Source: a virus (lineage: Duplodnaviria > Heunggongvirae > Uroviricota > Caudoviricetes). From it: DNA of 7,513 nucleotides. Of this stretch, positions 5,323 to 6,227 are shown piece after piece. The position numbers and the translations under genes are program-made. The stretch's first letter is position 1; every line of letters begins with the position of its first letter. The notes beneath the pieces were generated by a model that did not search any database, was not told the DNA's origin, and saw only the letters and a program-made list of their open reading frames with translations. The stretch covers positions 1 to 7,513 of the IMG/VR virus record IMGVR_UViG_2609460344_000015. The stretch is one strand, 5' to 3'.

Positions 5323-6227
5323 CAGAGACCGCAGCCCGACAGGGAGACTCCTCTGCGCGAGTGTGCGGGGATATTTTCCCTGACACCGGACGGAAAGCTG
5401 ACCGCTAAAAATGCGGATATCAGTGGCAGTGTGAATGCGAACGCCGGGACGCTCAACAACGTCACGGTAAATGAAAACTGTACGATTAAGGGCATACCGG
5501 CCCGAAAGGTGAGCAGGGCGACCCGGGAGGTCCACAGGGACCGAAGGGCGACAAGGGGGATACAGGAGCTGCAGGCCCGGCGGGGCCACAGGGACCGAAA
5601 GGGGATACAGGAGCCGCAGGCCCGGCGGGGCCACAGGGACCGAAAGGGGATACAGGAGCCGCAGGCCCGGCGGGGCCACAGGGACCGAAAGGAAATACAG
5701 GAGCCGCAGGTCCGGCAGGGCCACAGGGACCAAAAGGGGATACAGGAGCCACAGGTCCGGCAGGACCGCAGGGACCGAAAGGGGATACGGGAGCCGCAGG
5801 CCCGGCAGGGCCACAGGGACCGAAAGGGGATACAGGAGCCACAGGTCCGGCAGGGCCACAGGGACCGAAAGGGGATACAGGATCCACAGGTCCGGCAGGT
5901 CCTCAGGGACCGAAAGGGGATACGGGAGCCGCAGGTCCGGCAGGACCACGGGGACCATCCGGAAGTCCTGACAGCGGGCTGTTTGGTGTCGGTTCTTTTG
6001 TCCTTGCGGCGTATTATGCGACGAGTTATTCGGGGGATATGGCACCGGGCGCAGCTATTGCCGGCTCATCACTGTCTGCATGTTGCCTTTCGAATGGTAC
6101 TCCCCTGGTTGCTTCCTCTCGTGTGGGGGAGACCCGTTTACCGGGCACGTGGCGTGCATGTAGTCCGGTAATATGGACATCTGCTGCAGGTACAAGACAG
6201 GCAGGATTATTTCAGCGCATATCATGA
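5323..6227 (+). pseudogene. 3' portion of a tail-fibre gene with collagen-like Gly-X-Y repeat region; 5'-truncated and frame-broken
   Basis: No start codon or RBS: translation ...[44 protein letters not shown] is open from the stop at 5320-5322 in the Rz frame. At about 5497-5503 the protein-like frame shifts to the one ending at TGA 6225-6227, giving [10 protein letters not shown]... collagen triplets and a globular C-terminus (...[31 protein letters not shown]...). Inserting one G in CCGGCCC (5497-5503) would join the frames as GIPGPKGEQ. Confidence 0.55.
5583..5942 (+). repeat. Eight tandem copies of a 45-bp unit encoding [15 protein letters not shown] (collagen-like triple-helix repeat)
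   Basis: GGGACCGAAAGG recurs at 5591, 5636, 5681, 5726 (one substitution), 5771, 5816, 5861, 5906, a strict 45-bp period; units differ by a few synonymous or conservative changes. Degenerate Gly-X-Y flanks extend from about 5499 to 5969. Confidence 0.85.

Follow-up and report, generated by a model that had tools for sequence, protein, structure and literature searches.

A truncated collagen-like side-tail-fibre gene with a 45-bp repeat, probably still changing length, in an Escherichia coli lambdoid-prophage remnant

Introduction

The collagen-like EPcl proteins of E. coli prophages form trimers whose collagen triple helix rises by ~2.9 Å per residue, and they are regarded as probable side tail fibres (PMC3368898). 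The trimeric triple helix was proven biochemically for EPclA only, and a G-X-P-G-G-P-X-G interruption is carried by EPcl proteins. The same source described these collagen-like side-tail fibres and their variable collagen length in 2012, and Ghosh et al. suggest there that prophage fibre modules recombine with one another (PMC3368898). In phage lambda, the side fibre is anchored to the tail by a collar made up of residues 1-94 of the side-tail-fibre protein Stf (PMC12617516).

Here we describe a collagen-like locus within a 7,513-nucleotide stretch of DNA, hereafter the window, which comprises positions 1 to 7,513 of the IMG/VR virus record IMGVR_UViG_2609460344_000015. With a probability of roughly 0.88, we read the locus as a pseudogene fragment of an EPclC-type side-tail-fibre (stf) gene from a lambdoid prophage, in which a 45-bp repeat would still be changing length.

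Results

A Gly-X-Y tract built from near-identical 45-bp units

Tandem Repeats Finder (TRF) returned a single strong array in the window, with a period of 45 and 8.9 copies at positions 5556-5956 (91% matches, 0% indels, score 641). Combined with unit-by-unit alignment, this search resolved eight near-identical 45-bp units on the plus strand at 5583-5942, each encoding GPQGPKG(D/N)TG(A/S)(A/T)GPA, in agreement with a preliminary description of the sequence that had claimed eight such tandem repeats and had named a repeat-finder search as the check. Each of the eight units departs from the consensus at 1-4 of its 45 positions, and pairwise identity among them is 87-100%, the units at 5583-5627 and 5628-5672 being identical and the remaining pairs matching at 39-44 of 45 bases. 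A more divergent unit at 5538-5582, with 10 differences from the consensus, precedes the eight, and a partial unit follows them to position 5956, so that the full array on the plus strand spans 5538-5956. Across the eight units there are 20 differences from the consensus, 15 of them synonymous and five amino-acid changing (D to N, A to T three times, and A to S), and the Gly codons are untouched throughout.

The array is part of a collagen-like Gly-X-Y coding tract of 157 codons on the plus strand (5499-5969, in the phase of 5490). The Gly-X-Y pattern is broken once, at 5526-5531, and the interruption typical of EPcl proteins is present as G-D-P-G-G-P-Q-G at 5517-5540. In Pfam searches the Collagen family (PF01391) matched plus-strand positions 5490-6224 at 84.5 bits (E 4e-24; cut-off 27.2), and among the six frames only the plus frame in phase with 5490 passed that cut-off; one minus frame reached 21.8 bits, below the threshold, and the other frames scored nothing. 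Glycine periodicity over 5499-5969 and this exclusive Pfam match thus establish the coding frame that had been proposed for the tract. A G-quadruplex was also considered as a cause of repeat instability and was dropped, the array containing no canonical G4 (loops of 1-7 nt).

The tract belongs to a 5'-truncated gene bounded by deletion junctions

BLAST divides the window region into unrelated blocks at 1-5373, 5372-5495 and 5483-6234. The first block aligns with late and lysis regions of lambdoid type, comprising SASA esterase, holin, lysozyme and Rz, and in an intact phage these regions run on into the terminase genes. The second is a 124-bp internal fragment of the tail-tip gene J (5372-5495, plus strand), with 98% identity to codons 943-984 of a 1134-aa J, and its reading frame is offset by one base from the Gly-X-Y frame. 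The third matches the 3' part of genes annotated as 'prophage tail fiber N-terminal domain-containing protein' and amounts to the 3' 58% of an EPclC-type gene; within it the stf remnant occupies 5490-6227 on the plus strand (stop codon 6225-6227) and corresponds approximately to codons 169-397 of an intact 397-aa protein.

Two junctions separate these blocks. At junction A (5368-5375) sequence downstream of Rz meets J codon 943 with 2-3 bp of shared bases, and everything from the terminase genes through J codon 942 is missing. At junction B (5483-5495) J meets stf at an imperfect 12-bp microhomology (GATTAAGGGCAT vs GATAAGGGGGAT), and ~1.69 kb is gone relative to the intact prophage, comprising the J 3' end, lom and stf codons 1-168. 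In the history that we propose, one illegitimate deletion would have brought the region downstream of Rz up against J codon 943, and another would have fused J codon 984 to stf codon 169 with the frames offset by one base. The intact relatives encode proteins of 367-442 aa in which Pfam places the virion-attachment domain PF08400 (PfN, phage_tail_N) at residues 1-127, followed by a short coil, the collagen tract and an 85-aa C-terminal domain; PF08400 is among the features encoded by the 168 missing codons and is not found in the window because the deletion at junction B removed it. All head and tail genes have been lost from the prophage remnant, and from the lambdoid tail order of J, lom, stf and assembly gene the window keeps the DUF4376 gene and the J fragment, lom and most of J having been deleted.

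The 3' side of the locus is better preserved. The 85-aa non-collagen C-terminal domain (5970-6224, plus strand) belongs to no Pfam family and is also found in EC55989_1078; it is presumed to be the receptor-binding and trimerising tip, and the PDB matches of a full-length intact relative cover the collagen region and the N-terminal collar only, with no solved structure for this domain among them. An intact DUF4376 gene of 202 aa follows in the position of the fibre-assembly gene (6235-6843, plus strand). The identical 202-aa protein is encoded on 90 E. coli contigs, and the DUF4376 gene adjoins the 3' end of a collagen-like stf gene in every place examined. The end of the prophage is flanked by a chromosomal YkgJ-family CxxCxxCC gene (6988-7374, minus strand), and the gene order in intact relatives runs J, lom, stf, DUF4376, YkgJ-family gene, potB, potA, pepT, roxA and phoQP. 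Over its right flank, the window shares 99.7% identity with E. coli strains in which an intact prophage occupies this locus. Between the DUF4376 and YkgJ-family genes we note a strong hairpin, CGGGACTGGCCGTGGTCCCG, followed by eight T's (6854-6882, minus strand), which is probably the terminator of the chromosomal gene and would mark the right end of the prophage.

To the left of the junctions, the window retains a lambdoid lysis block on the plus strand (2825-5280) that consists of a P21-type holin (2825-3040), a lysozyme (3637-4170) and Rz (4729-5280) with an embedded Rz1-like ORF (5033-5218). A 158-aa ORF between holin and lysozyme (3124-3600) has no Pfam match, nor do two small ORFs of 70 and 90 aa between lysozyme and Rz (4248-4713), the latter of which looks hydrophobic. 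Segments 3049-3137 and 4300-4751 give no megablast match to an otherwise collinear prophage (L013) and therefore appear to be variable inserts in the lysis cassette. Further upstream, a DUF1737-SASA-DUF6645 esterase gene (NanS-p-like, 164-2124) is split into ORFs 164..1390 and 1168..2124 by a 1-bp deletion near position 1145 (CGTTTA-GACGG vs CGTTTATGACGG), with the intact 653-aa WP_000874509.1 as the reference. Three related sequences described below (L014, L015 and L022) have intact esterase ORFs of a different allele, at 644-692 aa by open-frame length. The 1-bp deletion would fit a decaying prophage.

Unit number varies among intact alleles and among remnants

Full-length relatives of the stf gene were found by BLAST in 18 complete genomes, with gene lengths of 1104, 1149, 1194, 1239, 1284 and 1329 nt that are all separated by steps of 45 nt; for one of the 18, the BLAST alignment covers 1193 nt. 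Intact alleles, six from complete E. coli genomes and four others, contain 5-9 canonical units, and the highest TRF count was 11.3 copies, in ECOR29. The same behaviour is seen in truncated copies. Remnants in three NCBI E. coli draft assemblies (L022-L024) have exactly one 45-bp unit fewer than the window, and L022 is identical to window positions 5200-6300 save for one missing unit, placed at 5628-5672, with 7.9 TRF copies as compared with 8.9 in the window. The array is thus a variable-number tandem repeat, with a fixed period of 45 and a unit number that differs between otherwise identical remnants. The recent expansion or contraction that had been suggested from the uniformity of the units is accordingly borne out, both by the sister remnant that is one unit shorter and by the comparison among related strains that had been recommended, which gave intact genes in 45-nt steps between 1104 and 1329 nt.

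The order of units in L022, DAA NAA DAT DAA DAT DST DAA, is also the order in an intact allele (L003), and the window differs from both by an extra, identical first DAA unit. From this we infer the direction of the change, a one-unit gain in the lineage of the window being the most parsimonious account. Since the sister remnants differ by one unit, the array would have changed length after the gene was truncated; this order of events, truncation first and unit gain later, assumes that the junctions arose once. Alternatively, the unit number could have been altered by gene conversion, with an intact copy at another place in the genome as the donor. Whole units may be gained or lost by replication slippage or by unequal recombination between near-identical units. 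A repeat that changes copy number after its gene has been inactivated implies that the length polymorphism is driven by mutation, and such polymorphism is by itself no sign of selection on fibre length.

Homology between alleles often begins or ends inside the collagen tract (nt 385-936 of the gene), as evidenced by matches that cover 1-794, 1-848 or 1-923 on one side and 535-1192, 637-1192 or 721-1192 on the other. This pattern is consistent with the collagen tract serving as a site at which N- and C-terminal fibre modules are exchanged, and it raises the question of whether the stf 3' fragment and the DUF4376 gene have been retained as a donor of fibre tips for lambdoid phages through recombination in the collagen repeats. 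Homology breaks within the tract fit such module exchange, as do EC55989_1078, which joins a different N-terminal half to the same C-terminal domain, the intact state of the DUF4376 gene, and the fibre-module recombination proposed by Ghosh et al. (PMC3368898). If retention of this kind were real, co-resident or superinfecting lambdoid phages would be able to switch receptor specificity, and the collagen tract would be a universal recombination joint between a virion-attachment module and a receptor-binding module. We nevertheless consider it unlikely. There is no sign of selection; the remnant copies are identical over 4.5 kb, so that constraint is not measurable from them; any leftover homologous DNA can recombine without being kept for that role; and the neighbouring esterase gene is decaying. 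A pseudogene fragment with a mutable repeat is the reading that we carry forward.

Sister copies share both junctions

Junction B is found in two IMG/VR contigs, IMGVR_UViG_2609460344_000014 and _000019 (L014 and L015), which are 100% identical to the window over 3024-7513 and diverge leftward. The complete window sequence had no exact counterpart in any collection, identity being confined to this right-hand 4.5 kb. Both are filed under one IMG taxon id, and both stop exactly at the last base of the window. When they are compared with window positions 2260-7513, all 42 differences fall within 2260-3023, and this clustering looks like a recombination boundary. The draft assemblies L022-L024 were reached through a search with a wrong-frame ORF and encode its homologue P0016, to which we return below. 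Both junctions are base-for-base identical in all five of these E. coli-derived sequences (L014, L015, L022, L023 and L024), which represent at least four separate assemblies. Neither junction occurs in complete E. coli genomes, and exact searches for junctions A and B in the genome_contigs and metagenome_contigs collections returned nothing.

The absence of both junctions from every complete E. coli genome might suggest that they are assembly chimeras of repeated prophage sequence and that the real locus is intact, particularly as collagen-like stf matches occur in 3,884 of 5,426 complete genomes, at up to 35 places per genome. This explanation is very hard to sustain against the identical junctions of the five sister sequences, which come from four or more separate assemblies; their recurrence argues that the junctions are inherited scars and not assembly errors. 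Moreover, the junctions lie at microhomologies of 2-12 bp and not within long repeats, and the 124-bp J fragment left between them is typical of a deletion scar.

In L022 an insertion sequence (IS) with a Transposase_mut (PF00872) gene lies at 955-1785 on the minus strand, between rusA and the esterase gene. This site is the expected place of the late-gene antiterminator Q, and the window begins downstream of it. With an IS where Q is expected, the remnant may have a silent late operon.

The remnant lacks the signals of an expressed fibre gene

In the Gly-X-Y frame a TAA codon (5487-5489, plus strand) lies directly upstream of the tract, within the J fragment, and no ATG, GTG or TTG start codon occurs in that frame between this TAA and position 6039. 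The window copy is thus not a complete ORF for an EPcl-type protein. Past the TAA, the Gly-X-Y frame stays open over 245 codons, with the normal C-terminal domain and stop codon at its end. No sigma-70-like promoter was predicted in 5100-7513. We also observed a terminator-like hairpin at 5351-5380, CTCTGCGC-GAGT-GTGCGGGG followed by the run ATATTTTCCC, which was created by junction A and whose run was contributed by the J fragment. As a pattern match it would, if functional, stop read-through of the late operon into the stf remnant and the DUF4376 gene.

These observations bear on whether the tract might instead lie in an intact, expressed tail-fibre gene whose copy number tunes fibre length in this strain. 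The long open frame with its normal 3' end, the intact DUF4376 gene downstream and the variation in copy number among intact alleles would all be expected of such a gene. Set against them are the TAA with no start codon until 6039, the loss of the first 168 codons together with PF08400, and the lack of any lom, tail or head gene, with J reduced to its 124-bp fragment. An intact gene is already refuted at the level of sequence, and we give it almost no weight. Initiation from a non-standard codon would formally permit translation of the Gly-X-Y frame.

The absence of a start codon, the in-frame TAA, and the loss of the collar domain and of the head and tail genes together point to a pseudogene fragment, and by its sequence the locus makes no fibre. 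The shaft of the fibre in intact relatives would be a collagen triple helix wound from three chains, and each 15-residue unit may add ~4.3 nm to its length, since 2.9 Å per residue was measured for EPclA. The preliminary description had held that the tract can change fibre length, and this was half right: unit number does vary, but the gene here is beheaded and has neither a start codon nor PF08400. In an inactive gene with no fibre product, changes in unit number would have no effect on protein product. That description had also treated the tract as a coding part of a fibre at this locus, which does not survive the loss of 168 codons, the out-of-frame fusion to J and the disappearance of the head and tail genes.

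Wrong-frame ORFs cross the junctions and have been annotated

G+C content is 69% in the tract (5499-5969) and 51% in the rest of the window. Inside the tract four of the six frames contain no stop codon and the other two contain one each. High G+C and GGN periodicity would keep nearly all six frames open, and gene finders would consequently call spurious ORFs across the tract. Three long ORFs that had been flagged beforehand as probable artefacts are indeed present. The first, 5431..6171 on the plus strand, is an accidental 246-aa ORF with a GTG start that runs from the J-fragment frame into a wrong collagen frame across junction B. The second, 5026..6045 on the minus strand, is an accidental antisense ORF of 339 aa without a family match that extends across both junctions and over the 3' end of Rz, and the third, 5486..5887 on the minus strand, is an accidental antisense ORF of 133 aa (GPCGPAGP...) to which the sub-threshold Collagen match belongs. 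Because ORFs 5431..6171 (plus) and 5026..6045 (minus) cross deletion junctions, they are not evolved genes. Neither the three artefact ORFs nor a 62-aa ORF at 6039-6227 has an exact copy in a collection of 15 billion proteins.

The risk of mis-annotation that had been raised for these ORFs has materialised. P0016, encoded in L022-L024, is a 231-aa homologue of ORF 5431..6171 (94% identity over its full coverage), is titled 'fibronectin type III family protein [Escherichia coli 2-460-02_S3_C1]' at NCBI, and has no Pfam match. In a 5'-truncated copy the true Gly-X-Y frame lacks a start codon, and gene finders therefore pick a wrong frame; the lesson for annotation is that one such wrong-frame call stands in GenBank under a misleading name. 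Seven further protein clusters are homologous to the wrong-frame translation, and the four that were inspected are wrong-frame collagen tracts. One of these four, P0018 (237 aa, NCBI 'hypothetical protein ACLHY1_25040, partial'), comes from another E. coli and joins the gpJ N-terminus (PF24801) to collagen read in a wrong frame, independently of the fusion in the window, which suggests that J-stf deletions may recur in degrading lambdoid prophages.

Could ORF 5431..6171 be a genuine protein, as the annotation of P0016 has it? Gene finders call its homologue in three NCBI assemblies, and it has a GTG start and 246 codons. We find this scarcely credible, as the ORF spans a deletion junction and its two parts never belonged to a single gene: residues 1-21 come from J codons 963-983, and everything after them is out-of-frame collagen of low complexity. 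It matches no Pfam family, its length differs by 15 aa between sister copies, and the name given to its homologue derives only from the relationship to gpJ. Finally, a programmed -1 frameshift or other recoding event that would join the J-fragment ORF (GTG 5431) to the collagen frame was rejected as having practically no chance of being correct, although the two frames lie one base apart and the upstream ORF has its GTG start. The shift would be needed downstream of the TAA at 5487-5489 yet ahead of the point where the frames diverge. Inspection by eye revealed neither an X_XXY_YYZ slippery heptamer in 5485-5510 nor a Shine-Dalgarno-like sequence before 5431, the window contains no Rfam element, and the junction is a deletion accident.

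Discussion

The closest described relatives of this locus are EPclC and EPclC* (Ghosh et al. 2012, PLoS One 7:e37872), which share with the family of the window a collagen domain rich in GPQ-GPK-GD/E triplets and the same interruption. EPclC and the family represented in the window are also alike in that the C-terminus is unrelated to PfC (PF06820) and the intact relatives carry PfN (PF08400). EC55989_1078 (467 aa, L021), listed as EPclC*, shares with this family the 85-aa C-terminal domain and the DUF4376 gene that follows, and the lack of PF06820 together with a C-terminal domain common to this listed member places the family in the EPclC sub-architecture. The coil, in contrast, is ~25 aa long in the intact relatives of the window and is a 116-aa PCoil in EC55989_1078. 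The window copy itself differs from EPclC in lacking PfN, a start codon and the first ~40 collagen residues. Without PfN and a complete ORF, it is a remnant of an EPclC-type member and not a member. The strict 45-bp unit structure does not appear in the EPclC account in the portion of PMC3368898 available to us.

EPclA of O157:H7 prophages (e.g. ECs2717) follows the same order of PfN, coil, Col and C-terminal domain as the family of the window. Its Col length ranges from 63 to 144 aa between copies, and 'defective, frame-loss' copies are listed (PMC3368898). EPclA ends in PfC (PF06820) and has a 116-aa PCoil, whereas the family of the window has the 85-aa C-terminal domain that matches nothing in Pfam.

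The stf gene of lambda (Ur-lambda) occupies the same position as the gene family in the window, after J and lom and before the fibre-assembly gene. Its collar is homologous to the N-terminal domain of the intact relatives, in which residues 1-91 are matched by PDB chain 9e7m_Ta (E 6e-28). The stf gene of laboratory lambda is non-functional, as is the window copy, in lambda through a frameshift (PMC12617516); the lambda lesion lies in an otherwise complete phage, whereas the window contains a 5' truncation within a remnant that has no morphogenesis genes. The shaft of lambda Stf has been modelled as a coiled coil and not as collagen (PMC12617516).

More distant parallels exist in collagen-like proteins of bacterial surfaces, and BclA (1wck_A) is among the PDB matches of an intact relative. 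In Streptococcus Scl1 and Scl2 and in Bacillus anthracis BclA, the number of Gly-X-Y repeats varies by strain and sets filament length. These are cell-surface or exosporium proteins and not phage fibres, their triplet composition differs, and they have no homology to the family of the window outside the Gly-X-Y tract. As a dead fragment of a known fibre type, the locus carries little biological weight, and beside these described systems it is nothing new in kind, being an ordinary feature of a decaying prophage that belongs to a known gene family.
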